From the NCBI GenBank assembly GCA_039802605.1, contig JBDRWW010000004.1, forward strand, positions 1 through 64,000: a DNA stretch of 64,000 nt, given 5' to 3'. The notes beneath the pieces were generated by a model. That model was not told the DNA's origin and did not search any database. It was given only the letters and a program-made list of their open reading frames with translations. The DNA is from a candidate division WOR-3 bacterium. Its GTDB lineage: Bacteria > Hydrothermota > Hydrothermia > LBFQ01. The position numbers and the translations under genes are program-made. Numbering within the stretch: position 1 is the first letter of the stretch; the number at the start of each line of letters is the position of its first letter. Of the stretch, positions 4,452 through 48,316 are shown piece after piece.

Positions 4452-7400
4452 TTAAAAGTTGATCTTCACATCAACCCTCAACTCGTTTGATTTTGAACCC
4501 GTTGTGGTTTTTCTATCATATGAATAACTCCTTGAATATACGAAAGTTGCATCAACCGCATTACTAAAAGAGTATGTTGCGGATAAACTGAAAGAGTATC
4601 CCCTCCTATCCGAAAGGTTATTCACCTGTGGGTATTCAAAACCACCTATCGGGTCATATTTGTAATTAATCGCATCGGACCTTGAAGAGTTTATTGAATA
4701 TGTTAGGGATAGCACGAGCATATTTTTCAGGGAAAGGAAATTGCCTTTTGACCACGGAAGTCTAAAACCCCCAAAGCCGTTTAGAGTGTGCGAGGCCGTA
4801 AAGTCTATGTTTGTTTGAATATCCCTTGTACCGGATTTAAAGGTTAATAATTGTTCGTTTTGGCTGATGGTTCTTGTGTATGTTATGTTCAAACTTGACC
4901 CCGAACTTAAAATAAAATTGGGGGATACCGATAAGGTGGTTGATGTCCTTTTATCGTATGAACTGTCCGGGGGGGTTGGGGGATAATATGTAAGGGTGTT
5001 GTCCTTTGAAAATGAAAGGTTTGCGTTTGAAGATGTTATAAACTTAATGGAAGATATAAAGGGTATTTTTGCCAAAGATACGGTTATATCCGGGAATCTG
5101 GTGTTGTTGGTTATAGATTGCCTAACCTTAGTATAAGAAAAAGTCCTTGAAAATGAATACCTGGGTTGCAAACTCAAATCCCAAAAGTTTATACCTGTAT
5201 TCACATCCACGGCATTGCGCTCCGTCCACGTGTTTGCAAAACTGTCCAAGGATATACCGGCATTTGGATCGTTTGTTATACCCAACCTATACCTCCAATC
5301 CGCCCTTCTTTGAACCAGATTAAACCTCGAATTCCTTGAAAAGCTGTAAGTTATCCTCATATTGTTCCAGAATTGTGAAATCTTGTCGAGGCCGTATAGT
5401 ATTGCGTGTAAAGGCCCGGCCGTTTGTAAAGATGTATCCTTACTTTCATCCCTGAGAGAGCCTATTTTTGAAAGGAGTTGCCCGTGGAAAATGGAAAACG
5501 AAGCCTGAACATTTAAGTTTTCGTCAAGGTTTCTAACATCAAGGTGGGGGGAAGGCCTTATTTCCAAGGAGTGGTTTTCGTTGTATGTATGCGAATATGA
5601 GAAGCCGGGTTGTAATATAAATATTTGCGGGATGTTTAAACTACCCGAATACCTCTCACCATAAGAAGATTCGTATCCGAGTATAGAGTCCCTTCTACTC
5701 TTGAATAATGTGTCGTACCTGTAATCCCCCGTCCTTGATATTCCATAACCCAGAGTTAAAAGGCCTGGCACCAAGTTGTAGTTTATATCACCCGAGAAAT
5801 TGCCGCTTTTTACCACGGTTGTGGTTGGAGAACCCAATATAAACCTTTTGCTGTAATCCCTGTTGTAGGTATAAGAGAAACTGTAAGAGGGTAGTGGATA
5901 AATTATCCTGTTGAAGATTTTGAACTCCACCCTAGGATTGTAAGAGTAGGAAACCCTATAATTTTCCTTAAAGGAGGTATCCCTAACCTCGGGCCCATTT
6001 GTTGAAGATGAACTGAAAGAGTTCGAAAGGTTCCAAGCGTCTAAAAGAACCCTACCCAAAAGGGATTTTGAACCGGTTTTCTTAAAAGACCAACCCAAGG
6101 ATTTGCTTTCCGAAGTGGTTATATAGAGGTTTTTTTCATAGTTTGTTTTTATCGGTACATCCAAGCCGGGCTTATACTTTGGTAATTGACCGCTCGTGCT
6201 ATAAGAAACGGTTATTGGGGCGGTTAAACCCCAAGAGGATGGTAAAAACCTATGCGAGTTTAGTGTAGCGGTAATGTTATATGACCTCTTGTCGTATGTG
6301 TTCCTCTGTGTTGCCGACTGCGCGAAATCAACCTGTTCTATTTGCCCATTTGTGCTTAATGAAAACAGATCGGAAAGTTTAAAGTTTATGTTGATCTTCC
6401 CCGCATTTGCGGATGTTCTAACCGGATCCGTTAATCTCAACTCGTTAATCCAAACTATCCCCGAATTCCTTGTACTCCCATCGTTTTCAATTCCAACCCA
6501 GAAAAACCTAACATCAAAAATATTTGGATTACCTTTAACTCCCAATGTTCCATTGCTCCTGTATGCAACCGATGATGTGGAATCCTTAAACCTAACCAAA
6601 TCTTCCAAGTTTATTTTAACCTCCTGCCAATCGCCACCTTTAACCTTATACTTGTACTCGTAAAAGTTCAAGCTATCGGTCCCAAACCTTATTATAACCT
6701 TCGGCGTATAACCGCCAACGCCCTTAATCCAAAAAGAAACGGATTTGTAGTTTATAAAGTTTAAGCTCTGGGTCAACGATTTCCTCGCCAGTGCATACTC
6801 TCCCGGTGCAAAATCCTGAAACTCCATTACAAGGGAACCCTCATCCTCCAACTTTCCCGTTGTTATATCCCTCTGCAATTTGTCCTCAACACCCGGAGGC
6901 GATGTATATCCCGGTGTGGTTTTCCTACTAACAAACCCCAAAACAAACTTTTGAACGGTATCCGCCGTATCAACCTTCACCCCCTCATTTACCCAATCGC
7001 TTCCCCCTATCCCGAGATTAACTATGTACAAAGTATCCGTTTTATCAAATCCCACCCAAGTTATGCGAATATACCTTATCCTTTCAAGGGTTGGCGTTCC
7101 AACCTTGTAATCGGGTTTCTTCAAAGGTATTCTGAACTGCTTCCACCCGTTGTATTCGCTTATGGGTGTCATGTTATCAAGGTCAAAAACATATGTGAAA
7201 TACCTTTCGTACCCGTTTAATGTCCCGTCTTTATCCATATCCTCGGTATCAAGCCTACCGTTTCCCTCAAACCCATCCATAGGGGAAAAGTCCGAGTTCC
7301 TCAAATCGGAGATATACGCGTAGTCGTCATTACCCCAATCGCCATTCCCGCAACCCGCCCTATCATCACCCTTTACACCATCAAAACCCGTATCCTCCTT

Positions 7401-9941
7401 ATCACCGCTTAAAAGGAAATCCCCATCCTTATCCTCCGTATTAAGCGTATCCAAACCCCTTATTTTCCCCCTACAATCCCTAATAAGCATATCTTCCGGT
7501 ATATCCGTTCCGAGATCAACTATAACCCTTCCACGCCCCTTTGCGTACAACTCCAAGTATTCCTTTTCCAAATAATTATAACCGCTTTCGTTTATAAGCC
7601 TCATAAGGGTTGTCCAATGGGGTAATCCATCGGTTTTTGGGCGGGCAACTATTATCATAACCTTTTCCCTATCGTTTATTTCTGTTGGGTCAAGGTTCGG
7701 GTATATCTGTCCCTTTGTGAATAAATTTGCCGTTGAAACCCAAGAGGTTTTTATTGCATAATAGTTTGTATCCGCCAAAAGGGAATCTATCCTCGGCCAA
7801 GAACCCGGATACCACCTTATATATTCGTCCGCAAACTCTTCAAGGCTTGAAGCCCCCCTATCAAAGTCGTCTATATAAGCCTCTCCCCTTGTATTCGGAT
7901 TCGGAAAGGACCTCGCTATTTCCCCCTCAACCGAAAGATTGCTCTTTTGCTCCAACGATAGGAAAGTGTATCTGTTTAAAAAGGAGTTTAGGTAATCCAT
8001 CGTGTGGTTTATCTTTCCGTCAAAGGATAAAACCTTATAACTCGTGGGTTCAAAACCAACCGCGGGCCTAAGGTATGAGGATGCCAAGGATTTTGATATA
8101 TAATTCAAGTGAAACTTCGCGTTCTCGGAAAGGTCAAATGTTGAAGATAATGCTATTATTCCCTTATTTCCCCCTCCAAAAATGTCATAACTCCTGTAGT
8201 TTACCTTTAATTCCGTGTTGGGTGGGAGGTCGGTTTTCAGTATCCTTATTTTTCCGGAAAAGTAATCAACGGTGTAATCAACATTCTCGGTTAATTTTTG
8301 TCCATTGGCGAATATCTCAACCGAACCCTCAACCAGGCCAAACCCCAATGTTATTTCCTTTTGGGGTTTTTCAAAGGATACAACGATGTAATAAATGTCC
8401 CTGTGGCTTGTGGGTATATCCTGTAAGCTGACCATATAAATCAGGCTATCCCTGTCTTTTAAGGAGGAATCGGCAAATGGCCAAAACTTCGGTATAAATA
8501 TGTAGCCGTTATACTTGTCGAGTATCCTAAAAGGAACCCCATTTACCTGAACATAATCGTCAGCAAAACCGTCTTGGTTGTTGTCTATACCCAATATTTT
8601 CGTAAAGGGGATTCCGTCTTGGGAGTTTGGGTCGGTGCTCGTACTCGGCAAATCCCGGAAAATATCCACCTTTACAGACGAAACCGTGGTGTCGATGTCT
8701 CCCGGGAGCCTATAAGCGTATTTAACCTCGTATGAATTTATCTCTACGGCGCAAGGTATAGATGTATCCGATAGGGTGGTGCGGTTCCTCTTTAATAGGA
8801 GCATTTTAATTGGGTTTAAACTGTCGGGATTTTGTGGGATATTACCTATTCTTACCGTATCCGAACCCTTAACAAGGGTTATAACCGCACCAAGCCACCA
8901 CTCCCCACCGGGGGGGTTTATGACCTCAATAACCCTTCCACCAACGGATGTAATAAAATCTTTACCCGGTGTTAATTCCTTCCACCTACCAAATTTTACG
9001 CATACGCTTGTATCCGGCCAGGTTGTATCCCCCCTAAAATAGGCCTTAGCATATGTATAAACATCGTTTGGAGGGGGTGATGTTGTGTAATACAGTCTAA
9101 TATCGGTTATTGCGTAGTTTTCGGGGTCGGGAACGAATAGGGATATGGGGATATAAAAGAACCTATCCCTAACATAATCCCTTGCATATATGGTATCCGT
9201 TATTATTTGCGATTGTAGGGTAAAAACCTTGGTCTGGCTTACACCCCTCTCCCTCGTCGCCAAGAAAACCACATTTGAAGGTCCAAAACCGAATTTCCCC
9301 TTTAACCCAAACAAACCCGCCCCGGCACCAATGGAAGTGTATGAAGTTGTGGGAAAGCCCGAGGCGTCTATATCACCAGCCTCCAAACTCTGAACTATAT
9401 CGTCATCCGTACCCGTATATGAGAGTTTCACCTGATTCCTTGAAAAATCCGTTGCCTCCGAATTGTGCGTGACGGTGACCTTTAACCTATCGGTTATCTG
9501 TCCGGTTATATTAACGTTTAAAGTTTGCTTCATTTGGAGTTGCGGTATATCGGACGAAACCGTATCGTATTTACCCCCAAAGATATAACTGTCCTGCCTA
9601 CCGCCGAGACTTATGGTTTGATTACCGGTTAGGGATACCTTGCTAATTCCCTCACCCAAGAACCTCCACCTTGAAGGTATATAAACCGGTACGCTTATAT
9701 CCGGTATTAAGCCAACACCCTTAGCAAACGATGTATCCGATTTTTTTAGCTCGTCCTCTTTTACGCTTTTTAACAACCTCAACCCGAAAAAGTCTTCATA
9801 AGTATAAACCCTTACCGTATCGGCATACCCGTTATACCTAAGTTTTTCGTATATGAATGTGGAATCATATCCCCATTCCCGCCCAAAAATTTCCCTAACC
9901 AAGTTTTCCGAGAAATCCGTATATGCCAAAAGTATTATCAC
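4452..9941 (-). CDS. sprA: SprA-like type IX secretion system outer-membrane translocon
   Basis: 1829 aa; NVNITGQITDRLKV, KLSYTGTDDDIVQSLEAGDI, GLFGLK, DYTVDYFSGKI, AYIDDF and WINELRL motifs; beta-rich C-terminus ending in Phe. Confidence 0.8.
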   Translation of the reverse strand: MIILLAYTDFSENLVREIFGREWGYDSTFIYEKLRYNGYADTVRVYTYEDFFGLRLLKSVKEDELKKSDTSFAKGVGLIPDISVPVYIPSRWRFLGEGISKVSLTGNQTISLGGRQDSYIFGGKYDTVSSDIPQLQMKQTLNVNITGQITDRLKVTVTHNSEATDFSRNQVKLSYTGTDDDIVQSLEAGDIDASGFPTTSYTSIGAGAGLFGLKGKFGFGPSNVVFLATRERGVSQTKVFTLQSQIITDTIYARDYVRDRFFYIPISLFVPDPENYAITDIRLYYTTSPPPNDVYTYAKAYFRGDTTWPDTSVCVKFGRWKELTPGKDFITSVGGRVIEVINPPGGEWWLGAVITLVKGSDTVRIGNIPQNPDSLNPIKMLLLKRNRTTLSDTSIPCAVEINSYEVKYAYRLPGDIDTTVSSVKVDIFRDLPSTSTDPNSQDGIPFTKILGIDNNQDGFADDYVQVNGVPFRILDKYNGYIFIPKFWPFADSSLKDRDSLIYMVSLQDIPTSHRDIYYIVVSFEKPQKEITLGFGLVEGSVEIFANGQKLTENVDYTVDYFSGKIRILKTDLPPNTELKVNYRSYDIFGGGNKGIIALSSTFDLSENAKFHLNYISKSLASSYLRPAVGFEPTSYKVLSFDGKINHTMDYLNSFLNRYTFLSLEQKSNLSVEGEIARSFPNPNTRGEAYIDDFDRGASSLEEFADEYIRWYPGSWPRIDSLLADTNYYAIKTSWVSTANLFTKGQIYPNLDPTEINDREKVMIIVARPKTDGLPHWTTLMRLINESGYNYLEKEYLELYAKGRGRVIVDLGTDIPEDMLIRDCRGKIRGLDTLNTEDKDGDFLLSGDKEDTGFDGVKGDDRAGCGNGDWGNDDYAYISDLRNSDFSPMDGFEGNGRLDTEDMDKDGTLNGYERYFTYVFDLDNMTPISEYNGWKQFRIPLKKPDYKVGTPTLERIRYIRITWVGFDKTDTLYIVNLGIGGSDWVNEGVKVDTADTVQKFVLGFVSRKTTPGYTSPPGVEDKLQRDITTGKLEDEGSLVMEFQDFAPGEYALARKSLTQSLNFINYKSVSFWIKGVGGYTPKVIIRFGTDSLNFYEYKYKVKGGDWQEVKINLEDLVRFKDSTSSVAYRSNGTLGVKGNPNIFDVRFFWVGIENDGSTRNSGIVWINELRLTDPVRTSANAGKININFKLSDLFSLSTNGQIEQVDFAQSATQRNTYDKRSYNITATLNSHRFLPSSWGLTAPITVSYSTSGQLPKYKPGLDVPIKTNYEKNLYITTSESKSLGWSFKKTGSKSLLGRVLLDAWNLSNSFSSSSTNGPEVRDTSFKENYRVSYSYNPRVEFKIFNRIIYPLPSYSFSYTYNRDYSKRFILGSPTTTVVKSGNFSGDINYNLVPGLLTLGYGISRTGDYRYDTLFKSRRDSILGYESSYGERYSGSLNIPQIFILQPGFSYSHTYNENHSLEIRPSPHLDVRNLDENLNVQASFSIFHGQLLSKIGSLRDESKDTSLQTAGPLHAILYGLDKISQFWNNMRITYSFSRNSRFNLVQRRADWRYRLGITNDPNAGISLDSFANTWTERNAVDVNTGINFWDLSLQPRYSFSRTFSYTKVRQSITNNTRFPDITVSLAKIPFISSIKFITSSNANLSFSKDNTLTYYPPTPPDSSYDKRTSTTLSVSPNFILSSGSSLNITYTRTISQNEQLLTFKSGTRDIQTNIDFTASHTLNGFGGFRLPWSKGNFLSLKNMLVLSLTYSINSSRSDAINYKYDPIGGFEYPQVNNLSDRRGYSFSLSATYSFSNAVDATFVYSRSYSYDRKTTTGSKSNELRVDVKINF

Positions 9942-11001: not shown

Positions 11002-11002
11002 G

Positions 11003-11076
11003 AGGTGGCGCGGGGATTTGAACCCCGGAATAGCGGTTTTGCAAACCGCCGCCTTAGTCCGCTTGGCTACGCCACC
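11003..11076 (-). tRNA. tRNA-Cys(GCA), CCA not encoded
   Basis: GGTGGCG/CGCCACC acceptor stem, GCGGT-TTGCAAA-ACCGC anticodon arm, GGTTCAAATCC T-arm, U discriminator. Confidence 0.95.
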
Positions 11077-11114
11077 AAAGTGAGTATTATACACCCGAAA
11101 GGTTTGAGGTTATA

Positions 11115-12422: not shown

Positions 12423-14112
12423 ATCCCCTACCTTTCAAATTCTCAAAAATTACATACTCAACAAAATGTTTGGGTAGAATCTCCCCTATTAATGGATCGC
12501 TTTTAATATCCCTCACCCTATCCCTTAAAACCCCAGAAATCCATCCCTTAACGGGTGCCCCAAATCCCGCCTTTTTACGATAAATTACCTCCCTTGGTAA
12601 AACCCCCTTTAATGCCCTTTTCAAAATCTTCTTTCCGGAAAACATATCAACCTTTAAGTTTGAAGGGGTTTTTAGCGCCAATTCCAAAAGTTCGTTGCTC
12701 AACATTGGAACCCTTATCTCAAGGCCCACGGCCATAGAAGTTTTATCGGTATATAGCAAATTGTGGTCGGGTAAAAAGTGTTCAATGTCAAAAAGCATAC
12801 AGGAGTTTAACATATCGCCCTTTGGAAACCCATCTATTAAACGCTTAAAAACATCCCCGAAACCCTGATAATAAGACATCCATATCAAATAGTTTAAGGG
12901 GAATGGTCTGGAAGCGGCGGTTTTAAACTTGTTTATATCCCTTGCCAACCTTCCGAGTTTTCCCGATGAAAATGGCAATTCCGGGATATACTTCAAAAAA
13001 GGGAAATTTTTGGCAATTATCAAAGCCCTATACCTCGGATAACCACCCCAGAGTTCATCCCCTCCCGTGCCCGCAAGGGCGACCTTTAACCCCATTTCCC
13101 TCGCCCCCTTTGACAAAAGGTAGTTTGATATTGCGGCACCATCCCCAACGGGTTCTTCAAGGTGATAAACCACCCTTTCAAAATTCTCTTCATTAAACCT
13201 AACCTTTATGGGATGTAAGGAATGCCCGAACCTTTTGGCCACGATCCCCGCAAACCTATACTCGTCCGAAAATATATCCCTTTTTATATCCTCCCCCTCA
13301 AAGACCAAAGAGAATGCCCTTAAAGGCCTTTCGGTAAAGGATGCTATTGCGGATGAGTCCAACCCACCGCTCAGAAAAAGGCCAACCTCAACATCCGCAA
13401 TGAGGTGCATTTTAACGCTTTTTTCCAAAGCGTATTTTATATCATCCGGCTCAACCCTATCCTCGCCCAATTCCGCTTTATAAAATGGGAATACTTTAAC
13501 CTCCCCATCCTCGTATATTAACACATTTCCGGGTGGTAATTTGTATATCCCTTTAAACGCCGTTAAGGGATGGGGGCACCAGAGGAATGTTATGTGGTAT
13601 TTTAAAGCCTCCAAATTGGGGGATTTTTCAACAAAGGGTAGGGTTAAAAGGGGCTTTATTTCCGAAGAAAACGCCAGAATATTGCCCCTTCTCGTCCAAT
13701 AAAGGGGCTTTATCCCAAACCTATCCCTCGCCAACACCAACCTCTTACCATCCCAATAACCGAAGGCAAACATCCCGTTAAACCTTTTTATCCCTTCAAC
13801 CCCATAGACATCCAAAACCTTGAAGACAACTTCCGTATCCGAACGGCTCTTAAACCTTATACCCCTTTCAATTAGCTCCTTTTGCAAATCCAAAAAATTA
13901 TAAACCTCCCCGTTATAAACCAAAGCCCTACCCCCCTCAACCCATGGTTGTTTTCCACCCTCAATATCTATTATAGAAAGCCTACAATGCCCTAATACGA
14001 CCCCTTTATCCGTCCATATCCCCGAATCATCCGGACCCCTATGAGATAAAAGTCTTAAAGGGCGTTCCACATTTAAACCCTCATAATTAACAATTCCAAA
14101 AATCCCACACAT
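12358..14112 (-). CDS. asnB: Asparagine synthase (glutamine-hydrolysing) family amidotransferase
   Basis: N-terminal MCGIFG, HRGPD, YNGEVYN, RDRFGIKPLY, LSGGLDSS, GGDELWGGY. Confidence 0.9.
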   Translation of the reverse strand: MCGIFGIVNYEGLNVERPLRLLSHRGPDDSGIWTDKGVVLGHCRLSIIDIEGGKQPWVEGGRALVYNGEVYNFLDLQKELIERGIRFKSRSDTEVVFKVLDVYGVEGIKRFNGMFAFGYWDGKRLVLARDRFGIKPLYWTRRGNILAFSSEIKPLLTLPFVEKSPNLEALKYHITFLWCPHPLTAFKGIYKLPPGNVLIYEDGEVKVFPFYKAELGEDRVEPDDIKYALEKSVKMHLIADVEVGLFLSGGLDSSAIASFTERPLRAFSLVFEGEDIKRDIFSDEYRFAGIVAKRFGHSLHPIKVRFNEENFERVVYHLEEPVGDGAAISNYLLSKGAREMGLKVALAGTGGDELWGGYPRYRALIIAKNFPFLKYIPELPFSSGKLGRLARDINKFKTAASRPFPLNYLIWMSYYQGFGDVFKRLIDGFPKGDMLNSCMLFDIEHFLPDHNLLYTDKTSMAVGLEIRVPMLSNELLELALKTPSNLKVDMFSGKKILKRALKGVLPREVIYRKKAGFGAPVKGWISGVLRDRVRDIKSDPLIGEILPKHFVEYVIFENLKGRGFTYLTLFELLTISTWRKLFGL

Positions 14113-14798
14113 TACAAACTATCCCCAAAAATATCCCCTAAAATCATCCAATTTACATTTCCCAAATCCGGATTTTCCTTAAACTTTTTCACAAACTTCC
14201 ACTCGTCATACCATCCCCTATACTTAAAATCCTCCCTACCCAAATACTTTGTTAAAAAAGGTGCAACCTCTATTGGCAAAAATGTGTCAGCTTTTTCATC
14301 ATAAACCGCCAACAGTTTCGGATAGGACTTTGCCGCTGGAATGAACTTAACATCAACATATACATGCCAATAATCCCCTATTTTCACCTTTTCAATACTT
14401 TGGATTTCGTAGGATGGGTTTATAACCCTTAAATTCCCGTATATCTCACCAACCTTAAAATTACCCTTAAAAACCGATATTCTAAACCCTTTTTCCCCGT
14501 TATAGTTAAACCTTTCGCTAACCAAAAAGGCTTTTTTAAACTTCTTCTGTTTATCCAGGGTTAAGGCTAAAACATCCGCATAAACGGGGAATTCCCTATC
14601 CCCCAACTTGATAACCAACCTCTTCGGGAATATTAGTGCTGGTATGTATGCACCCTCCCTGACATATTCCGCGGGTATAAACCCAACAACCCTAAACCCA
14701 TCTCCATCTTTAACCACAAACATATTAACATTTAAAGGGGGTTTTTGCGGAAAACAGGAAAAGAGGAAAAGGGACAAGACAAAAAAACGGTTTTTCAC
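14112..14798 (-). CDS. Hypothetical lipoprotein
   Basis: Likely GTG start overlapping the ctaA stop; MKNRFFVLSLFLFSC lipobox. Confidence 0.55.
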   Translation of the reverse strand: MKNRFFVLSLFLFSCFPQKPPLNVNMFVVKDGDGFRVVGFIPAEYVREGAYIPALIFPKRLVIKLGDREFPVYADVLALTLDKQKKFKKAFLVSERFNYNGEKGFRISVFKGNFKVGEIYGNLRVINPSYEIQSIEKVKIGDYWHVYVDVKFIPAAKSYPKLLAVYDEKADTFLPIEVAPFLTKYLGREDFKYRGWYDEWKFVKKFKENPDLGNVNWMILGDIFGDSL

Positions 14799-17437: not shown

Positions 17438-17438
17438 A

Positions 17439-17885: not shown

Positions 17886-17909
17886 TTTCTACCTCCTTTA
17901 ACAGGTATT

Positions 17910-30532: not shown

Positions 30533-30585
30533 AGTTTGTTATTCTAAGGCTGATAAAAATATTCCCCTTTATAATACCCGACTAA

Positions 30586-33300
30586 ATGAACAAAATGTTC
30601 GGTTTATATAAAAGGGCTATTATAAGGTTTAACAGGGTATTGGTGGCCTTAACGGTTATAACCGTTTTAGTTTTTTCCCTGGGGATATTTCGCCTAAAAC
30701 TTGAAACCGATATAACAAAGTGGTTGAGGAAGGACGATCCGGATGTTGCCCTGTTCAACCGGTTAAACGAAGATTTTTCTGCGGGGACATTGGTATTCAT
30801 AGGTTTGGAGTCAGATAACATATTTAGTCGGGAAGTTTTGGGCTTTATAAAAACCTTAACGGACACACTTAAAACCGTAAAGGGGGTTGAGGGTATAACA
30901 AGCCTCGCCAATACGGTTGATATAAAGGGGTATGAGGGTGGCATAGAGATTAGGGACCTTATGGAGGCGGTTCCCGAGGATCCAGAACCCCTAAGGGAAT
31001 ATGTGCTATCCAAGGAAAGGTATGTTGGGAATTTGGTTTCAAGGGATGGTAAAAGGACGCTTGTAATCGTAAGGATTTCCAAAGATGCCAATAATTCAGA
31101 GGTTGCGAAGAAAGTAAAGGAGTTGTGTTTGAATTTATCAAAGGGTTTAAATGTAAAACTTTATTTTGGTGGTAACCCCATACAGGTTTACGAAATTACC
31201 GGCGTTGTCCTATCGGATATTTTTAGGTTATTACCCATTGCCATAATCGTTGTTGCCATAATACTTTTTTCCGGTTTCCGCAGTAGGAGGGGGGTTATTT
31301 TAACCTTGCAGGTTGTTGGGTTTTCCACCGTAATGGTTATGGGACTTATGGGATATTTGGGGATTCCGGTTTCCGCGGTATCAAACATAATACCCGTTTT
31401 GCTTTTAAGTATAGGTTCGGCTTATGCCATACACTTTATAAACGGATATTACGACGCTTTATCAAGGGGTTTGGAAACAAAGGAGGCCGTTTTGGATTCC
31501 CTGGATAAAAAGTTTATACCCATATTCATGGCCGCCATAACAACCGCAATAGGCTTTATCTCCTTCATAGGCTCATACCTAATACCCATAAACAACTTTG
31601 GAATATTCACATCTTTGGGGGTAATTTTGGCCTTTGTTCTGAGTATAACATATCTGCCATCTATACTATCCATATTATCAAAGCCCTCATTTATTCCAAA
31701 AACGGAAAGGGATTACGGTATATTTAAACCCTTCATTTCCATATCCCTTAAAGCGGTTTCAAAAAACACCCTTACCTTATTGGCATATCTTATCCTCGTA
31801 TTTTTGGGATTGTTCGGTATAACTAGATTAAAGCCTTCCGTAAACCTCCTTGAATACTTTCCGCCCAAATCGGATGTTAGGATGTCTTCCCTTTTCCTTT
31901 CAAAGTATTTTGGAGGCGATTCACCCTTAAACATATACATAAAAGGGAATTTAAGGGATCCAAATGTTTTATACGAGGTTAGGAGGCTTGAAAAGTTTGT
32001 AAAAACCGTTGATGGTGTGGGTTCCGGTCAATCCATAGCGGATTTGGTTGCGGATATGAACAATGTAATAAACGGGATAAGGACCATACCGGAAAGTGGG
32101 GAAGGGGTGGCAAACCTTATGTTAATGCTTGAAGGAAGGGAAATCCTGAACCAAATGGTAAAACCCGATTACTCGGAAGGCCTTATAATTTTCAGGTATT
32201 CCCGAAAGGATGTTGATTCTATTAAAATGGCCAAAAAACTCGTTGAGGATTATATAAAGGAAAACATAGAAAAGGGGTTTATAGTGGTTCCGGCAAGTGA
32301 TAAAAGGGTTATAAACAGGGTTGCCGAGGAGATTTATTACGACCTTTTAATAAGGGGTTGGAGGGCTGAAAAGACAAAAGTGGTTGATGTTTTGGAAAAA
32401 GCCCTCAATTTGGAGTTTAAGCCCGATTTGGAGGCATTGAAAAGAAGGATTTACGATTATTTAACGGTTGAATCCCCTAAGATAATTGAAAAAGAAAGGG
32501 TAATCACCCTTTTAAAGGGTATCCCTGAGAATGTTGAATTTATACCGGAGTATGTTGCGGAGAGGGTTGGGGGCGAATTTAAGGATATCATAAGGGGGGA
32601 TTTGGATTTTATTTTAAAACAGGAGGTTAAAAGGCAAAGGGTTGAAAGCGTTTATGCCAGTATATTAACGATTATTCCAGAAAACCTGCGGCAAAACCCC
32701 GAATTGGCGGTGGATATAAAGGGGGATATATCCCTTCTTTTAAGGGATAGTGTTATGATACCGGCGGATGGCGGTAAAAGGATAATGGATGTAAAGGTTT
32801 CCGGTCTCCTTCCCATATACGCAAAAATAAGCGATCAAATTATAAAGAGTCAGATAACCAGTCTGGCAATAGCATTAATTTCCGTATTCCTCCTAATTGG
32901 CATTATATTTAGGTCTTTTTATCTGGCCACACTCTCAACCATTGCCATCTTTATAGTTATCCTTGCCAATTTCGGAATTATGGGGATTTTGGGAATTCCA
33001 TTAAACAACGCTACGGTTTTAATAGCTTCAATAGCGGTCGGGATAGGAATAGACTACATAATACACTTCCTTTCGGATTACAGGAAGGAAGGTGATGTTG
33101 AAGGTGTTATAAGAACCACGGGAAAGGCTATATATTTGAACGCCTTAACCGTTTCTTTGGGTTTTGCCGTTTTGTTATTTGCAAACATGATACCGCTTAG
33201 ATATTTGGGAGGTTTAATAGGCTTGACGATGATTTTAAGCGCCTTGGTTTCAACAACCCTTTTGCCCTCAATGTTGAAAATAAAAGGAGGTATAAGATGA
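30586..33300 (+). CDS. RND/MMPL-family transporter
   Basis: Two membrane-domain repeats; SIGSAYAIH, TTAIGF, GIGIDYIIH. Confidence 0.85.
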   Translation: MNKMFGLYKRAIIRFNRVLVALTVITVLVFSLGIFRLKLETDITKWLRKDDPDVALFNRLNEDFSAGTLVFIGLESDNIFSREVLGFIKTLTDTLKTVKGVEGITSLANTVDIKGYEGGIEIRDLMEAVPEDPEPLREYVLSKERYVGNLVSRDGKRTLVIVRISKDANNSEVAKKVKELCLNLSKGLNVKLYFGGNPIQVYEITGVVLSDIFRLLPIAIIVVAIILFSGFRSRRGVILTLQVVGFSTVMVMGLMGYLGIPVSAVSNIIPVLLLSIGSAYAIHFINGYYDALSRGLETKEAVLDSLDKKFIPIFMAAITTAIGFISFIGSYLIPINNFGIFTSLGVILAFVLSITYLPSILSILSKPSFIPKTERDYGIFKPFISISLKAVSKNTLTLLAYLILVFLGLFGITRLKPSVNLLEYFPPKSDVRMSSLFLSKYFGGDSPLNIYIKGNLRDPNVLYEVRRLEKFVKTVDGVGSGQSIADLVADMNNVINGIRTIPESGEGVANLMLMLEGREILNQMVKPDYSEGLIIFRYSRKDVDSIKMAKKLVEDYIKENIEKGFIVVPASDKRVINRVAEEIYYDLLIRGWRAEKTKVVDVLEKALNLEFKPDLEALKRRIYDYLTVESPKIIEKERVITLLKGIPENVEFIPEYVAERVGGEFKDIIRGDLDFILKQEVKRQRVESVYASILTIIPENLRQNPELAVDIKGDISLLLRDSVMIPADGGKRIMDVKVSGLLPIYAKISDQIIKSQITSLAIALISVFLLIGIIFRSFYLATLSTIAIFIVILANFGIMGILGIPLNNATVLIASIAVGIGIDYIIHFLSDYRKEGDVEGVIRTTGKAIYLNALTVSLGFAVLLFANMIPLRYLGGLIGLTMILSALVSTTLLPSMLKIKGGIR

Positions 33301-34022
33301 AAGGATTAAAGGCAATATTGCCGATGCTTTTGGCGGGGAACCTTTATGGATTAAGTGGCAATGATATATTAATCGGGGTGGATTCGGTTATGAACGCCCC
33401 AAAGGATAGAAAAACCTTGATGAAGATGACGCTAATAGACGGTAAGGGGAACGAAAGGGTAAGAACCGCCGAATCATATCAAAAGGGTAGAGATAAAAGG
33501 CTTATAAAGTTTATTACACCGGCGGATCAAAAGGGTGTAAGCTTCTTAGCCCTTCCAAACGATGTTATGTATGTTTATTTCCCCGCTTTTAGGAGTGTTA
33601 GGAGGGTGGCATCCCATATAAAATATCAGGAATTTGCCGGAACGGATTTAACATACAACGACCTCGGTTCTTTCGGTTATTCCAAGGACTACAATGCCGA
33701 AATCGTAGGTGAGGATGATGTGTCTTATATCTTAAAATTAACCCCAAAACCCGGAACGGATAAACCATATTCATACCTTAAAATGTGGGTTGATAAAAAG
33801 ACATTTCTGCCCCAAAAGGTTGAACATTACGACAAATCCGGCTCTCTATGGAAGGTTATGAGGATTGAGGGGGTTAAAAACATCAAGGGTTATAACATAC
33901 CCTATAAGATCTCGGTTGAGAATGTGAAGAAAAAACATAAAACCATAATGGAGTTTGAAAATATGGAGGTGGATGTGGGTTTGAGCGATGATATATTCAC
34001 CGTTAGTTATATGAGGAGGTGA
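33297..34022 (+). CDS. Outer-membrane lipoprotein-sorting (LolA-like) protein
   Basis: FITPADQKGVSFL, YFPAFRSVRRV, FAGTDLTYND; SD AAGGAGG. Confidence 0.8.
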   Translation: MKGLKAILPMLLAGNLYGLSGNDILIGVDSVMNAPKDRKTLMKMTLIDGKGNERVRTAESYQKGRDKRLIKFITPADQKGVSFLALPNDVMYVYFPAFRSVRRVASHIKYQEFAGTDLTYNDLGSFGYSKDYNAEIVGEDDVSYILKLTPKPGTDKPYSYLKMWVDKKTFLPQKVEHYDKSGSLWKVMRIEGVKNIKGYNIPYKISVENVKKKHKTIMEFENMEVDVGLSDDIFTVSYMRR

Positions 34023-34026: not shown

Positions 34027-35310
34027 ATGATTTTGCTTTTGGTATCCGATATAAACGGCGATGTTTTGGGATATTATAGGTATTGTTTTGGTTGCGATAC
34101 GGCGAGATGGACATGGAACGAGGAAAGGCTTGAATTGAGGTTTTCGGGTTCATCCGATAAGGTTTCTTATGGTGCGGATTTCAGGTTTAGGGTATTCGGA
34201 ATCCCGAATATAAACGGCCTTTCGGATATACAGAGGAGGGATAAGGGTGGAATTTCTCCAATATATGTTCAACCTAGGGAGGCGTTTATTACGCTTTACG
34301 ATATACCTTTTGGCGGTTTAGAGGTTTCCGTAGGGAAAAAGGTTATATCTTGGGGGAAGGCCGACGGAATAAATCCAACATCCCAAATATCCGTTTACGA
34401 TTATGAGGATTTCTTTGACATAGGGGCAAAATTGGGAACAAACGGTATAAACATCAGGTATTCCCTTGGAAACTTTTGGGTTGAAGGGGTTTTTTCAACA
34501 TTCTCCCCAGATGCCATCCCGCCAGATCCCTATTCTTCCGTTTTCTTCTCCTCTTTTCCCGATACCATAAACATCGTTGCGTTAAACGACACCATTAATA
34601 TTCCCAAAAACGGCCTTAGGGGGCCTTCCGAATTTGCAATTAGATTTGCCGGAACCGTAAAGGGTATAGACCTTTCCCTTATATACTTTCGCGGGTATGA
34701 TGGAATACCTTATCCCAAGAGAATTGATATAACCCCTTACAACCTCATTGAAAAACAGGTTAAGATAAACCTGATTATGGAATATCCCAAGTATCATATG
34801 TTGGGTTTTAACTTCGCCTCAACCCCTTTTAATTTGGGTTTTTGGGGGGAATTCGCGCTCTTCATTCCCGATTCCTTTGAAACCCAAAAGAGGCTTTTAT
34901 TACCCGACCCCTTCGGTTTTGACTCCGTTACTCTAACATTTCAACCGAACAAACCGTTTTTAAGGTTCGTATTGGGTTGGGATTACACATTCCCAAAGGG
35001 TATATACGCAAACTTACAATACATAAGGGGATTTATAAACGAAAGGTCAGCCGACAGTTTAAGGGATTATTTTATTCTACGCATGGAAAAGACATTCTTT
35101 GACGGGAACTTAAAGGTTATGCCGGCCAACCTGCTATTAGAAGTGGGAAATTGGGGGAATATTGTGTGGATACCGGCATTTGAGTATTACCCCGTTGATA
35201 ACCTAACCGCTTCCTTTGGCGTATTGTTAATATGGGGTAAGGGGGATTCTCCGCTTGCAAGGATGGAAAAAATAGACGAAGCCTTTTTCAGGATAAAATA
35301 CAGTTTTTAA
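34027..35310 (+). CDS. Outer-membrane beta-barrel protein (DUF1302-like)
   Basis: REAFI...VGKKVISWGKADGINPT motif; C-terminal IKYSF; follows RND and LolA-like genes. Confidence 0.65.
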   Translation: MILLLVSDINGDVLGYYRYCFGCDTARWTWNEERLELRFSGSSDKVSYGADFRFRVFGIPNINGLSDIQRRDKGGISPIYVQPREAFITLYDIPFGGLEVSVGKKVISWGKADGINPTSQISVYDYEDFFDIGAKLGTNGINIRYSLGNFWVEGVFSTFSPDAIPPDPYSSVFFSSFPDTINIVALNDTINIPKNGLRGPSEFAIRFAGTVKGIDLSLIYFRGYDGIPYPKRIDITPYNLIEKQVKINLIMEYPKYHMLGFNFASTPFNLGFWGEFALFIPDSFETQKRLLLPDPFGFDSVTLTFQPNKPFLRFVLGWDYTFPKGIYANLQYIRGFINERSADSLRDYFILRMEKTFFDGNLKVMPANLLLEVGNWGNIVWIPAFEYYPVDNLTASFGVLLIWGKGDSPLARMEKIDEAFFRIKYSF

Positions 35311-42908: not shown

Positions 42909-43310
42909 GTGAAAGTTGATAAAACCTTCCTCCTTAGGGGTTTGTGGGTTGTTATAGCGGCCCTTACTTTGTTATTCTTTATAATTTCCGTTATACCCAA
43001 AAATAAAAAGGAAAAACCTTATACGAGCATAACCGACGAAAAACTCGATGTGGTTGTATTAAACGGCACAAAGATGGACAAATTGGCGTATACCGTATCC
43101 CAGTATTTGAAGGGTAAAGGGGTAGATGTTATATATTACGGAAATGCCGACAGTATATACTCGCATACCCTAATAATAGACCGCAGGGATAGTATAAATT
43201 TATCTTATGCCAAGAGGGTTGCGAGGTTTATAAAAGGGAAAATCATGTATATGCCCGACCCCGATAACATCGCCCCGGTTTTCGTAATACTCGGAAACGA
43301 TTACAAATGA
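42909..43310 (+). CDS. LytR C-terminal domain membrane protein
   Basis: One TM segment, then VVVLNGT...LA...YGNAD...VILGNDY. Confidence 0.8.
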   Translation: MKVDKTFLLRGLWVVIAALTLLFFIISVIPKNKKEKPYTSITDEKLDVVVLNGTKMDKLAYTVSQYLKGKGVDVIYYGNADSIYSHTLIIDRRDSINLSYAKRVARFIKGKIMYMPDPDNIAPVFVILGNDYK

Positions 43311-45007
43311 TAACCCTTTTAGTATCGCTTAATATAACCGACATTAGGGTTTCCGGAAACCGTTTTTTAAAAAGCGATTTTATAAAGTCCGTATTAGGTT
43401 ATAAGAGGAATTTCATTTTCTTTAAAAAATACCCAAAGTTTTCCCCTTTTGCGATAAAGAGGGGTATTGAAGTTTTGGAAGGAGTTTATACGGACAGCGG
43501 TTTTTTTGATGTCAAAATTGAATGGAACAGAAGCGTTGAGAAAAACGGCGTTGTGATATTTTTAAACATTTACGAGGGTAAAAGGTATGTTATAAACGAC
43601 ATTGTTGTTCCTGAGGATTTACGGATAAAATTTTCCCTTCCAAAGCCCTATACCATAACATATGTATCCAGCGTAGAGGAAAAAATCCTAAGTTATTATA
43701 GGAATCACGGGTATCCCTTTGTTGAAGTAAATAGGGAAGAATACAAGGACTACGAGAACAAAACCGTAAAAATCGTTTTTTCCGCTTCAAAGGGTGATAG
43801 AATAATTATTAGAAATGTAATTTGGAAAAGCGCCGACACCACAAAACCTTTAAACACCCGCTGGAAGATTTTCAAAAGGGAAATAAAGGTAAAGGGTGGA
43901 GAGTTTTTTAAGGAAAGGGATGTGGAGGAAAGCATAAGCCGTTTATACAGAACACAATTGTTTAACACCGTATTTTGGAAGCTTGAAAATGTCAAAGACG
44001 GATATGCCGACTTGGTGTTTTATGTAAAGGAAGGCCCTCCGAGGATCTTGGATTTAAGCTTTGGTTTTCAAAGCGAGACCAAGCACCCAATACTTATAAA
44101 ACTTGAAAATGTATTCCAACACATAAACCTATTCAACAACCTCCAAAGGGTTCAGCTATCTTCCTATTTATTGGTTGATGTTGCAAATACAAACCTAAAC
44201 GCTTATAACATAAGGGTCTTATATCAAGAACCATACTTTTTGGATTTTAACCTCCGTGCAAATTTTAACATTCCGGTTTTTTACGATCGTGATAGAAACC
44301 TTTTTCAATACGGATTGGCGGGGGAAATTACCAAACCCTATTTTTTTGGCGAAAATAACTCTTTAAACTTTGGGCTATCTTACGACAAAAGGAAGGCGTT
44401 ATCCGATGAACAGGGTTATGACATATTCCGCCTTTATCAAAGCGTGTTTTTTGATACCCGGGATAATATATTTGATCCGGACTTTGGGAGCTTCCTTAGG
44501 TTTGAAATTTATGAAGCGGGCTTTGGTTATTTGGGTAATTACGATTATATAAAATGGGTATCGGATATCTCACTTTATCAAAGGTTCTTTTTAAGCGAGT
44601 GGAAATGGGCCCTTAGATTATATTTTGGGGGTATTTCCCCGTATATAAGAAGCGATACCCTTCCCATAATAGACCTTTTTACCGTAGGCGGTGAGGGACA
44701 AGTTAGGGGATATGATAGGTTTTCCATAGGACCGGATTTAAAGCGATGCTATTCATACATATGTAAAGCCGGCCGGTATCCCCTTCTGTTTAATTACGAG
44801 ATAAGGAGAAAAATAAACGATTACTGGGGTTTTGTCCTGTTCTTTGATTATGGGTATTTGGATGGGGATAAGGGGTACTCCGGTGGAATGGGTATAAGGT
44901 ATTTTACACCCATAGGGCCCATAAGGTTTGATTGGGCTATAAAATTAAAGGAAAGATCTCCCACGGATAGGGGAAAGATTTATATAAGTCTAGGTCATAT
45001 GTTTTAA
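43307..45007 (+). CDS. BamA/TamA (Omp85) family outer-membrane protein
   Basis: POTRA-like repeats, VRGY motif (GQVRGYD), GIRYFTPIGPIRFDWA, terminal Phe. Confidence 0.9.
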   Translation: MITLLVSLNITDIRVSGNRFLKSDFIKSVLGYKRNFIFFKKYPKFSPFAIKRGIEVLEGVYTDSGFFDVKIEWNRSVEKNGVVIFLNIYEGKRYVINDIVVPEDLRIKFSLPKPYTITYVSSVEEKILSYYRNHGYPFVEVNREEYKDYENKTVKIVFSASKGDRIIIRNVIWKSADTTKPLNTRWKIFKREIKVKGGEFFKERDVEESISRLYRTQLFNTVFWKLENVKDGYADLVFYVKEGPPRILDLSFGFQSETKHPILIKLENVFQHINLFNNLQRVQLSSYLLVDVANTNLNAYNIRVLYQEPYFLDFNLRANFNIPVFYDRDRNLFQYGLAGEITKPYFFGENNSLNFGLSYDKRKALSDEQGYDIFRLYQSVFFDTRDNIFDPDFGSFLRFEIYEAGFGYLGNYDYIKWVSDISLYQRFFLSEWKWALRLYFGGISPYIRSDTLPIIDLFTVGGEGQVRGYDRFSIGPDLKRCYSYICKAGRYPLLFNYEIRRKINDYWGFVLFFDYGYLDGDKGYSGGMGIRYFTPIGPIRFDWAIKLKERSPTDRGKIYISLGHMF

Positions 45008-45027: not shown

Positions 45028-46095
45028 ATGGTTGCACCTTTTAAAAGGAGGAAGAGCAGGGAAGTTAGAATCGGAAATGTCGTTATAGGGGGTGATAACC
45101 CCATTGCGGTACAATCAATGACAACAACGGATACAAACGATGTTGAGGCTACTATTGCCCAAATAGAGAGGCTAGTCAATGCGGGTTGTGAAATAGTCAG
45201 GGTTGCCGTTCCCTCGAGAAAAACCGTTGAACCCTTTAAAAGGATAGTTGAACATTTTAAGGGTAGGGTTCCAATAGTTGCCGATATCCATTTTGATTAT
45301 AAAATAGCCATAATGGCCGCGGATGCGGGGGCGGATAAGATAAGGATCAACCCGGGAAACATTGGGGGTTTTGACAAGGTTAAAGAGGTCATAGCGGCCG
45401 CAAAGGCAAACAATATTCCTATAAGGATAGGCGTAAACTCCGGCTCCCTTGAAATGGATCTAATTGATAAATACGGCGGGGTAAACGCCGACGCCCTCGT
45501 TGAAAGCGCGGTTAGGTGGGTAAGATTTTTTGAGGAACAAAACTTTTACGATATCGTCGTATCGGTTAAGTCCGCCTATGTTCCCCAAATGATAGAGGCT
45601 TATAGAAAGGTGGCACAACTGATAGATTACCCATTACATTTGGGCGTTACGGAAGCCGGCACTCCAAAGACCGGTATAATAAAATCCGCCATAGGTATAG
45701 GTACCCTTTTGGCAGAGGGCATAGGGGATACTTTTAGGGTTTCTTTAACCGCAGACCCAGTGGAAGAGGTTAGGGTTGCTTGGGAAATACTAAAATCCCT
45801 ACAACTCAGGACAAGGGGTATAATGCTTATAGCATGCCCAACCTGTGGTAGAACAAAGATAGACCTCATATCCCTTGCGGAAAAGGTAGAAAAGGCTCTG
45901 GATGGGGTTAATAAGAACTTGAAGGTTGCGGTTATGGGTTGCGAGGTAAACGGCCCGGGCGAGGCTAGGGAGGCGGACATAGGCATAGCGGCGGGTAAGG
46001 GGCAGGGAATACTCTTTATCAAGGGGAAACCCGTAAAAAGGTTAAAGGAGGAGGAGCTGTTAGACGCTTTGCTTGAAGAGATAGAAAAGCTATGA
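45028..46095 (+). CDS. ispG: (E)-4-hydroxy-3-methylbut-2-enyl-diphosphate synthase
   Basis: VQSMTTT, ADIHFD, RINPGNIG, HLGVTEAG, ACPTCGR, GCEVNGPGE. Confidence 0.97.
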   Translation: MVAPFKRRKSREVRIGNVVIGGDNPIAVQSMTTTDTNDVEATIAQIERLVNAGCEIVRVAVPSRKTVEPFKRIVEHFKGRVPIVADIHFDYKIAIMAADAGADKIRINPGNIGGFDKVKEVIAAAKANNIPIRIGVNSGSLEMDLIDKYGGVNADALVESAVRWVRFFEEQNFYDIVVSVKSAYVPQMIEAYRKVAQLIDYPLHLGVTEAGTPKTGIIKSAIGIGTLLAEGIGDTFRVSLTADPVEEVRVAWEILKSLQLRTRGIMLIACPTCGRTKIDLISLAEKVEKALDGVNKNLKVAVMGCEVNGPGEAREADIGIAAGKGQGILFIKGKPVKRLKEEELLDALLEEIEKL

Positions 46096-47270
46096 TTTTG
46101 GTAATCTTGTGTCAGCTCTTAATGGGTCAAGGTGGGGAAAGAGGTGAAGGAATATCAATTGAGCAGCAAACCGGAAAGGTAAGGTATCCGTTCTCGGCAA
46201 CCCCGACCATATACGACACCCTAAGGTTTCGTTCTATTATAACAGAAAAGGGCTTTATAATACCCCCAAAGGATTATACGTTTTTACCCGGTGATATTGT
46301 AGTTATTAGGTTGTCCGGCGATGTACCTTACGAATATTCTACCGTAATAGATTATAGTGGCAAAATCCCCATATATCTACCTACGGGGAAAACGGGCTTT
46401 TCTGTTGAAATTGCAAATATACCCTACGATTCCCTATTGAACTACTTAAATAGAATTATCGAGAAGCGATTGAGGAACTACAAAGTCAACGTATTTCTAA
46501 AACTACCGTCAATTTTCCCAGTTAGGTTTGAAGGTGAGGTTGTTAATGTTATGGATATTTATGTTGACGGTTTAACGCGTTTGCACGATGCTTTAAAATA
46601 CATATCTTTAAAACCCAACGCATCGAGGGATAGGTTTTTAATAACAATTGGGGATACCGGTTTTTTGGTGGATTTAAGGAATCTGTTTGAAAAGGGGGAT
46701 TTATATTCAAGCCCACTATTAAAACCCAATATGACAATTGGTGTTTTATCCGATTCGTCCTTTTGTACGGTTATGGTAGAAGGTTTTCAAAATGTTAATT
46801 GCAGCGAAGGGGAAAGCGTTATATCCGTTTTTAGAAAGGCAACCTTTATGAACCCCGTTTATAAACCCATAGGTTTTGCCGTTAAAAGAAGGGGTTTTGA
46901 ATTTACCAATGGCGATTATGCCGTTAAAGTAGGGGATACTATTTTCCCCATTTTTGGAATGGATAGCGTGTTCGTTTCCGGTTATGTGAATAAACCCACA
47001 ACGGTTGCATATGTCCCAATGGCAACGGTTGCATATTATGTATCGCAGGCGGGGGGTTTTAGGGATAACGCAACTATTGGGAAATATCTCCTCATTTCAA
47101 AGGATGGTAAAGAAAAAACCGTTGATGACACCTATATACCCATGCCGGGTGATGTTATATATGTAAAAAAGTCGTTTATAACTTTGAGGGAATTTTTGTT
47201 TTATACATCCTCGCTTGTGGGTATGACCGCCGCTTTATTGAATACATACCTAATTTTAAGAAGCAGATGA
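46092..47270 (+). CDS. SLBB-domain polysaccharide export protein (Wza/KpsD-like)
   Basis: DYTFLPGD Poly_export motif; SLBB repeats (VSGYVNKP, QAGGF, PGDVIYV); C-terminal hydrophobic helix. Confidence 0.7.
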   Translation: MILVILCQLLMGQGGERGEGISIEQQTGKVRYPFSATPTIYDTLRFRSIITEKGFIIPPKDYTFLPGDIVVIRLSGDVPYEYSTVIDYSGKIPIYLPTGKTGFSVEIANIPYDSLLNYLNRIIEKRLRNYKVNVFLKLPSIFPVRFEGEVVNVMDIYVDGLTRLHDALKYISLKPNASRDRFLITIGDTGFLVDLRNLFEKGDLYSSPLLKPNMTIGVLSDSSFCTVMVEGFQNVNCSEGESVISVFRKATFMNPVYKPIGFAVKRRGFEFTNGDYAVKVGDTIFPIFGMDSVFVSGYVNKPTTVAYVPMATVAYYVSQAGGFRDNATIGKYLLISKDGKEKTVDDTYIPMPGDVIYVKKSFITLREFLFYTSSLVGMTAALLNTYLILRSR

Positions 47271-48316
47271 TATTTTTAACTTTGTACTTTCAGGATAGTA
47301 CGGGTGGCATATTCATAGTACCGAAGGATTATACCATAAACCCTGGGGATTTGTTAAGAATATCCATATACTCCAAAAGCGTTAAAACCTTGGATTATAC
47401 GGATTATGTCGATAATGATGGCTTTTTTCCGCTTATATTTTCCCCTAATTCAAAACCCGAAAGGGTAAAGCTTTTAGGTTTAACGCTTGATTCCGCATCA
47501 AAAGTTATACTTAACATGTTCAGAAATTTCGTTAAAATAAAAGGCATTGATGGGGTTTCCGTAAACCTTGTAAAACCATCGGAGTTTTATGTGTATATTT
47601 ATGGAAATGTGCAGAAATCCGGCCCATTAAAGGTTAATTCCTTAACCAGATTGTCCGATGTTATATTCAGCGAAAATGTTTTACCGTTTTCAGCATTGAG
47701 TAGGGTTGTTTTAAACGGCAATGTTTTATCCATATGGAGGGGCTTGCGCGGGGATATTAAAAACAACCCCTTACTTAAAAATGTGGATAGTATATTTGTT
47801 CCAAAAACCGATAGCGTGGTTTATGTTGTGGGATATTTAACCGATGGTTTTATAAAACCTGTTGAATATAATTCCGGTGATGATGTTTTTACGATAATTT
47901 GGAAAATTGGTTATGGGAAGGATTTGTATAAAATATTTAAGGCCTTTATAAACGGCAAAATTGCGGATTTAAACGATAAAGTCTCGCCAGGAGATACCAT
48001 AAGTTTAATGATTTTCCCGAATTATGTTATAGTGGTTGGTGAGGTTTCAGAACCTAAGCGCGTGGAGTATCAACCGGGTTTAACGGTTTTGGATTATATA
48101 AACCTTGCCGGAGGCTTTTCTGATAGGGCGGATAAGAGAAGGATATCTATAAAAATGTTTTGGAATAATAGAACAAAAAGGGTTCCTCTGGATTATAAAC
48201 CCATGCCCGGAGATGCGATATATGTTCCAAGAGTAATTTTAACATATCAGGAGATCCTTTCCACATTATCCTTTATTTTATCGGCTACAACGCTATACTT
48301 TGTAATTACCAAGTAG
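47267..48316 (+). CDS. SLBB-domain polysaccharide export protein (paralog)
   Basis: DYTINPGD, VVGEVSEP, LAGGFSDRA, PGDAIYVP; C-terminal hydrophobic helix. Confidence 0.7.
   Translation: MIFLTLYFQDSTGGIFIVPKDYTINPGDLLRISIYSKSVKTLDYTDYVDNDGFFPLIFSPNSKPERVKLLGLTLDSASKVILNMFRNFVKIKGIDGVSVNLVKPSEFYVYIYGNVQKSGPLKVNSLTRLSDVIFSENVLPFSALSRVVLNGNVLSIWRGLRGDIKNNPLLKNVDSIFVPKTDSVVYVVGYLTDGFIKPVEYNSGDDVFTIIWKIGYGKDLYKIFKAFINGKIADLNDKVSPGDTISLMIFPNYVIVVGEVSEPKRVEYQPGLTVLDYINLAGGFSDRADKRRISIKMFWNNRTKRVPLDYKPMPGDAIYVPRVILTYQEILSTLSFILSATTLYFVITK

Follow-up and report, generated by a model that had tools for sequence, protein, structure and literature searches.

Seven-residue apolar N-termini in place of textbook signal peptides on predicted envelope proteins of a candidate division WOR-3 bacterium

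The window analysed here, the first 64,000 nucleotides of contig JBDRWW010000004.1 (C4:1-64000 in our numbering) from a candidate division WOR-3 genome (GCA_039802605.1, hereafter G000), encodes seven proteins of envelope families that begin with a stub, i.e. an N-terminal Met followed by 5-9 apolar residues with no basic n-region, in place of a textbook signal peptide. This trait is real and lineage-wide, and as to the mechanism we infer from comparisons of long and short orthologues that the stubs are probably Sec/signal peptidase I (SPase I) signals reduced to Met and about six apolar residues ending in the usual cleavage site of the lineage. The n-h-c signal is regarded as all but universal among bacteria; in G000, approximately seven uncharged residues stand at the head of essential envelope proteins. 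No report of such signals, or of signal recognition particle (SRP) loss in WOR-3, was met in the literature searched, with subscription papers and preprint supplements outside reach, and the terms 'signal', 'signal peptide' and 'SRP' do not occur in PMC12285271 and PMC11696919. The present work adds the match between a natural SecY change and an allele measured as superactive, with 150 diverse proteins as a control, a mosaic of leader lengths over six gene families, and the orthology of the window genes.

Stub genes, their start codons and their anatomy

G000 is 1.65 Mb in size, 90% complete and of about 41% G+C, and 1609 genes were called in it with a hexamer model. Protein clusters closest to its BamA occur most often in candidate division WOR-3, and most homologues that bear a name are likewise WOR-3; the nearest of these carry the label Thermotogae bacterium, which is probably an error. 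A search for related loci gave one that is near-identical. The original prediction had quoted seven N-termini with the corresponding protein families; all seven were found in the window as described, and Pfam searches bore out the families. The stubs and two associated promoter-like boxes are as follows.

9918..9941, minus strand: stub of SprA (gene 4452-9941, 1829 aa; the GTG start overlaps the stop of 9938-10519)
27958..27978, minus strand: stub of a type IX secretion system (T9SS) cargo protein (gene 25183-27978, 931 aa; in-frame stop 4 codons upstream)
27988..27993, minus strand: TAGAAT -10-like box, 9 nt before the T9SS cargo ATG, a putative leaderless start
30506..30532, minus strand: weakly apolar stub of an M16 peptidase (gene 29213-30532)
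30541..30546, minus strand: TAGAAT -10-like box, 8 nt before the M16 ATG, including the in-frame stop that bounds the frame
34027..34047, plus strand: stub of a DUF1302 outer-membrane barrel (gene 34027-35310; AGGAGG site before the start)
43307..43327, plus strand: stub of a TamA-like Omp85 protein (gene 43307-45007; ATGA overlap; POTRA match from residue 10)
46092..46112, plus strand: stub of the first SLBB protein (gene 46092-47270)
47267..47290, plus strand: stub of the second SLBB / Poly_export protein (gene 47267-48316; ATGA overlap)

The stub at 43307 had been assigned to BamA/TamA; the stub itself is real, but its gene encodes a short TamA-like paralogue, and BamA proper is found at G000:C3:85329-87659, also with a stub. 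An early Cys occurs only in the stub of 46092, and a lipobox reading of this residue (Cys7) was rejected, as the closest relative, G131, has Gly at that position. None of the seven stubs contains an Arg, and the twin-arginine (Tat) motif is accordingly absent from them. In addition, the 453-aa protein of 41538-42899 (plus strand), which has no Pfam match, a TTG start 6 nt after TAAAAT, a short apolar start and a barrel-like C-terminus, is, judged by its sequence, a possible eighth stub protein.

Pinning of the starts by a -10 box, a Shine-Dalgarno site or a stop overlap, as earlier claimed, held for the window stubs. Apart from the boxes and the AGGAGG site listed above, an in-frame stop lies 2-5 codons 5' of the starts at 30532, 27978, 34027 and 46092, and the starts at 9941, 43307, 46092 and 47267 overlap the stop of the preceding gene. 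The frames upstream of 9941 and 43307 are open for 13 codons each and contain no ATG, GTG or TTG; that of 47267 is open for 38 codons, including five ATT/ATC/ATA codons, and its orthologue in genome G077 has a stop 3 codons upstream. Genome-wide, -10-like hexamers of the TAnnnT type peak 6-9 nt before ATG and Shine-Dalgarno sites at 6-8 nt, a -10-box spacing that is consistent with leaderless starts. A TATAAT/TAGAAT/TAAAAT box also stands 6-9 nt ahead of the start in 441 of 1207 'other' genes besides 107 of 190 stub genes, and many genes of G000 look leaderless.

Two sets of stub genes were collected in G000, namely 134 genes with a strict filter and 190 genes with a looser one that left out proteins with membrane helices. 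An in-frame stop occurs within 8 codons upstream in 110 of the 190, whose start contexts comprise a -10 box 5-10 nt upstream (107), a stop overlap (44), a Shine-Dalgarno site (19), a short gap (8) or nothing (12). The frequency of the trait is clearest among genes with a T9SS domain, where 36 TIGR04183 matches, once five located at contig ends and a frame of 65 aa had been dropped, gave 30 genes that were read by hand: 25 begin with stubs, four with long signals, and one was left unassigned. The same filter passes only 255 of 6151 non-membrane internal Met positions (p ~1e-29 against 25/30). One further T9SS cargo frame (G000:C4:109382-111346, minus strand; 654 codons) has no ATG, GTG or TTG near its 5' end; it begins with ATA, followed by a short apolar stretch, and might either start at the ATA or be a broken gene. 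When 18 stub proteins were compared with Pfam, 12 were matched, including BamA, SurA, LolA, a DsbA-like protein, two TolC, a TonB-dependent receptor, OmpA and an M23 peptidase, with several domains beginning as early as residues 10-16, and six gave no match.

With regard to anatomy, no Lys or Arg precedes the apolar run in any of the seven window stubs or the 25 T9SS stubs, and the first polar or charged residue stands mostly at positions 7-12, short of membrane-spanning length. Position 2 is bulky in 143 of 190 stubs, so that Met would be retained, given the specificity of Map. Trp is found at position 3 in 38/190 stubs, compared with 12/255 of the internal-Met control and a background of 1.3%, and Gln at positions 7-11 in 45/190, where 17.6 were expected. 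The residue before that Gln is Ala, Ser or Gly in 27 of 47 cases, compared with 232 of 903 before other residues (p=1e-5), a small -1 residue that applies to the Gln subset only; stubs often end in L-L-S/A followed by Q. The long signals of G000 end alike, in two apolar residues and Ala/Ser before Gln, and there, too, the -3 residue is often bulky. Residues 8-22 of stub proteins carry a net negative charge (-0.45 vs +0.11, p=0.001).

Bacteroidetes possess Q-rule signal peptides of normal length together with a glutaminyl cyclase. Gln is likewise enriched at the predicted +1 position of this T9SS-bearing diderm, whereas the stubs are far from normal length. The glutaminyl cyclase family PF05096 was found in none of five genomes tested, and the sole M28 match in G000 is a 551-aa protein; hence cyclisation of the Gln, if any, may be spontaneous.

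Stubs resemble classical Sec/SPase I signals, as described in PMC5875014 and PMC9360617, in being N-terminal and apolar, in occurring on Sec-dependent families, in the small -1 residue and in the same mature start, in a genome where SecA, SecYEG, SecDF and LepB are present. They differ in having no basic n-region, about 6-9 residues instead of roughly 18-30, a bulky -3 residue and a Trp3 bias. Because charge, length and the -3 rule fail, we regard the stub as a variant and not as a member of the classical class. In model species, removal of the charge or shortening of the core cripples export, according to PMC5875014.

Orthologues across WOR-3 and contrasts within the genome

For BamA, 80 genomes were searched and 70 fetched, of which one truncated row was lost, and the remaining 69 together with G000 gave 70 rows that were read by eye. 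Short leaders (up to about 13 residues ahead of the mature start) were present in 46 and classical ones in 24. Nearly all short BamA leaders are devoid of an n-region, and three have one Lys and 11 residues. On a quick, unrooted BamA tree built without the signals, the leader state changes at least four times; as the tree is unrooted, gain and loss of the short leader are indistinguishable.

Five further families were read in 14-30 genomes each, and the resulting table of short and long leaders, scored by eye, reveals a gene-by-gene mosaic among families of the phylum (f numbers). In f3, f7, f9 and f10, BamA is short and both SurA and the TolB-like protein are classical, in f11 and f17 BamA is long and the TolB-like protein short, and in f21, f25 and f26 BamA is long and SprA short. 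Only f1 and f2 (the order of G000), f22, f27, f35 and f5 are short in every gene scored. Judged by eye, Lys-bearing short signals have at least 10 residues, and those of 6-9 residues are neutral or even acidic.

The long and short forms share the mature start in register, often a Gln, in BamA, TolB-like, SurA, SprA, TamA-like and M16 proteins. For instance, seven residues precede Gln-Val-Ile of BamA in f2, compared with 17-19 in f11 and f24, and seven precede the Gln of the TolB-like Omp85 family in G000, compared with about 17-24 in many relatives. The same mature start behind a long or a short leader indicates that the stubs are likely Sec/SPase I signals of which little but the cleavage region is left.

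Among the window genes, SprA has orthologues with short leaders in many families and with classical ones in f12, f15, f16, f18, f20, f23 and f33, and TamA-like orthologues have short, classical or lipoprotein-type leaders depending on the family. M16 orthologues with classical signals occur in f8, f15 and f23, which marks the M16 peptidase as a member of an exported family. For the DUF1302 barrel, one distant homologue was found (P0290, 30% identity), with a long basic signal. As long-signal homologues exist for each of them, the M16, TamA-like, SprA and DUF1302 proteins are all taken to belong to exported families. SLBB orthologues were detected in only 6 of 32 genomes, every one of them short or intermediate. 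Outside WOR-3, homologues carry classical signals in most cases. The N-termini of homologues are not equally short, with the reservation that the long-signal homologues come from other WOR-3 and uncultured lineages and not from model organisms. The earlier idea of a minimal Met-apolar export signal is supported by orthology, with classical signals before the same mature start in other WOR-3, and export itself is predicted from sequence.

Classical signals persist in G000, e.g. in four of the 30 T9SS cargo genes and in one gene of the window adjoining a stub gene. The window also contains three genes with lipoprotein signals.

33297..34022, plus strand: LolA-like protein with a classical basic signal of about 18 residues
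1467..1916, plus strand: lipoprotein, Lys at position 2 and lipobox Cys at 13
3621..4433, minus strand: Band 7 lipoprotein, Lys-Arg n-region and lipobox Cys at 14
14112..14798, minus strand: lipoprotein, basic n-region and lipobox Cys at 15

The LolA-like gene lies in one operon (30586-35310, plus strand) between an MMPL transporter gene and the DUF1302 barrel gene with its stub. Lipoproteins had been claimed to retain Lys/Arg, and this is indeed the case, as K/R stands at positions 2-3 in 55 of 60 called lipoproteins, a set with a few false calls; two lipoprotein candidates have no charge. Their signals are compact, with the Cys at 13-18 in 48 of 62. Stubs and lipoprotein (SPase II) signals thus share compactness, whereas the lipoproteins keep Lys/Arg and the lipobox and the stubs have neither.

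Export machinery, SRP and SecY

G000 contains SecA, SecY, SecD/SecF, YidC, one copy of LepB, Fmt, Def, Map, Lgt and LspA. Neither a family search nor tblastn found Ffh/FtsY in G000, and no small SRP RNA was found in G000 or in genome G006. An Ffh/FtsY-level match was found in none of 43 sampled, incomplete genomes of the class, several of them 99-100% complete (best E 9.8e-7), compared with 93 of 108 genomes elsewhere in the phylum (E 4e-40 or better). Ffh/FtsY were also not found in families f11, f23, f24, f26 and f32. The original prediction had further suggested an altered SecA, SecY or LepB. LepB and SecA look ordinary in alignments, and this part was not borne out: the single lepB gene encodes an intact Ser/Lys dyad and no changes were seen in 30 aligned rows, and 31 rows of SecA yielded one weak column and three class-specific columns without interpretable pattern.

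SecY is different (numbering by alignment to E. coli SecY). All 11 class rows have Ser/Thr195, Asp/Glu197 and Arg405, G000 itself carrying I195S, A197D and S405R. A second clade has Cys/Ala/Val195 with Asp/Glu197, and 11 rows keep Ile195. Among 150 diverse SecY proteins, position 195 is Ile in 141, Val in five, Met in one and a gap in three, with Ser/Thr/Cys in none of the 147 filled rows; Asp/Glu197 and Arg/Lys405 occur in two each. Other class-wide changes, here in G000 numbering, are T370L, W311x, N314D and the replacement of a conserved Arg in transmembrane segment 4 (TM4) by an apolar residue, and the C4-C5 region of G000 SecY is without the usual basic GRKIYGG-type stretch.

According to PMC13537251, I195 is a known superactive site of E. 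coli SecY and TM10 a hotspot, and its data S1 give values (log2 over wild type, proOmpA with native signal) of 2.16 for I195S, 0.63 for I195T and 0.70 for I195C. Compared with the prl/superactive alleles of E. coli described there, I195S is the identical substitution, and S405R adjoins the G402/G403 and L407/I408 hotspots of TM10. Unlike prl alleles, the WOR-3 change is natural and fixed in the whole class, and the pore-ring residues I191, I278 and I408 and the plug residue F67 are unchanged. Polar or charged residues at I195, V196 and A197 are predicted to ease channel opening in PMC11494458, and PMC5412566 describes prl strains that export proteins with defective or no signals, as well as targeting by mature domains.

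Several observations weigh against a decisive role of these substitutions. In PMC13537251, the I195S value derives from two replicates, one having been dropped as an outlier (p=0.085), and A197 and S405 were not in the mutant library. A change of I195 is not necessary for short leaders, as f14, f19 and f27 have Ile with signals of 9-13 residues and f21, f25 and f26 have Ile with a short SprA. Nor is it sufficient: with Cys195 in f15, f20 and G090 of f33, none of the genes read there showed a short signal. Totalled by eye, short leaders occur in 49/82 with a polar or small residue 195 and in 20/47 with Ile/Val. The 31 BamA rows split into 15 polar and short, nine Ile and long, four polar and long and three Ile and short, with only three independent pairs (p=1). 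An altered SecY is supported as a lead by I195S, although the distribution of the change does not match that of the stubs closely. The SecY change is a possible enhancer of the near-complete conversion to stubs in this class, on top of a phylum-wide tolerance.

Proposed mechanism, alternatives and further features

If the stubs are indeed reduced Sec/SPase I signals, LepB is predicted to cut them after export through SecYEG. This reading faces difficulties of its own. The full pattern of two apolar residues and a small one followed by Q/D/E is present in only 33 of 190 stubs (with a mode of seven residues, 16/33), an obvious cleavage site is missing from many stubs, those of the SprA and M16 genes of the window included, and the residue at -3 is bulky (L16, I11, F6 and V4 of 45) where A-X-A would call for a small one. 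Furthermore, the sets of 134 and 190 genes contain some cytosolic proteins that begin with a beta-strand.

Without SRP, precursors would reach SecA after synthesis, guided mainly by their unfolded mature domains, and the stub might merely trigger a permissive channel, to which I195S and A197D/S405R may contribute in this class. As a helix of seven residues cannot cross the membrane, an uncharged N-terminus that retains its Met could slide into the lateral gate or the bilayer, perhaps still formylated and with Trp3 as a possible interface anchor, whereby the cleavage site would be brought to LepB. Lipoproteins would keep a longer, charged signal because Lgt and LspA need it membrane-spanning; the charge of lipoproteins and the restriction of Lys to short signals of at least 10 residues fit this sliding model. 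We propose only tentatively that a naturally proof-reading-relaxed Sec system of WOR-3 bacteria accepts a seven-residue, uncharged signal too short for the membrane, which slides into the bilayer and is cut, that essential proteins, BamA among them, depend on it, and that one class does so without SRP.

An unlikely alternative, though one that we take seriously, is that the proteins pass Sec and the stub is left uncut by LepB, staying as an apolar tail or being trimmed by another periplasmic peptidase, with export that depends on the mature domain, as is the case in prl mutants. This explanation would suit the short length, since the usual membrane-spanning loop needs more than seven residues, the lack of a clean site of a small residue followed by Q/D/E in 157 of 190 stubs, and the absence of any adaptation in LepB; the enrichment of the small-then-Gln register and its match to the long-signal orthologues argue for cleavage instead, and it would be awkward for outer-membrane barrels, BamA for instance, to keep a greasy tail.

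It is distinctly less probable that stubs are recognised as a code of their own, beside Sec, by a lineage-specific factor or route (a SecA adaptor, YidC or a non-Sec channel). The positional bias of the stubs, i.e. Trp3 and the bulky residue 2, the coexistence of classical and stub signals in one genome, and the lack of any one change in SecY, SecA or LepB that follows the trait could be so explained, yet orthologues switch freely among long, intermediate (10-13 residues) and short leaders, a continuum that points to one pathway.

SRP loss, with or without a retained formyl-Met, is largely refuted as the sole cause of the shortening, and we give it slender credence. In its favour, none of the 43 class genomes has an Ffh/FtsY-level match and all 25 BamA rows of the class are short. 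However, leader state against SRP gave 25 short and SRP-less, 21 short with SRP, 15 long with SRP and nine long and SRP-less rows, and independent pairs never went the same way; because 21 SRP-bearing genomes have short BamA signals, SRP loss is not the cause of the stubs. As to formyl-Met, deformylase prefers Lys/Arg at position 3 according to PMC5454389, and the stubs lack these residues there, which makes formyl retention plausible, although Def is present with its motifs.

Finally, mis-called starts, with real starts upstream at rare codons and normal signals, can be practically dismissed, because the 22 of 190 stub genes with an upstream near-cognate codon and some apolar residues, and the open frame before 47267, stand against the stop-bounded frames, -10 boxes and overlaps given above, several BamA orthologue frames that begin only 12-17 codons before the first POTRA strand, and BamA and SurA entries with these starts that match the public collection letter for letter.

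Should the reading of a proof-reading-relaxed Sec system be true, the minimal bacterial signal peptide would be redefined and much of these secretomes would escape signal predictors. The secretomes predicted for these lineages probably fall short of the true numbers. Natural pairs of long and short orthologues on the same mature protein make the minimal Sec signal and the limit of the channel directly testable, and such a test is practical, given a natural I195S SecY, an SRP-less class, the cultured WOR-3 strain sy37 (PMC12285271) and a cell-free SecYEG assay (PMC13537251).

Some further features were observed. At G000:C1:227237-228448 (minus strand), genes that we take to be rpsL- and rpsG-like are followed by a 115-aa open reading frame (ORF), a methyltransferase-like gene and lepB instead of fusA. 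Within the window, 15627-19268 (minus strand) holds a cluster for a FIST-domain protein, a Roadblock/LC7 (MglB-like) protein, a small Arf/Ras-like (MglA-like) GTPase and a PAS histidine kinase. The segment 55098-61860 (plus strand) is a low-G+C island (30% at 56-60 kb) that encodes a 1244-aa sacsin/HATPase protein and a 1008-aa superfamily-1 helicase, and looks like a mobile or defence locus. Two tRNA genes are present, tRNA-Leu at 22121-22205 (plus strand) and tRNA-Cys at 11002-11076 (minus strand); the latter falls within the ORF called at 10546-11094, an over-long call whose gene starts further down.

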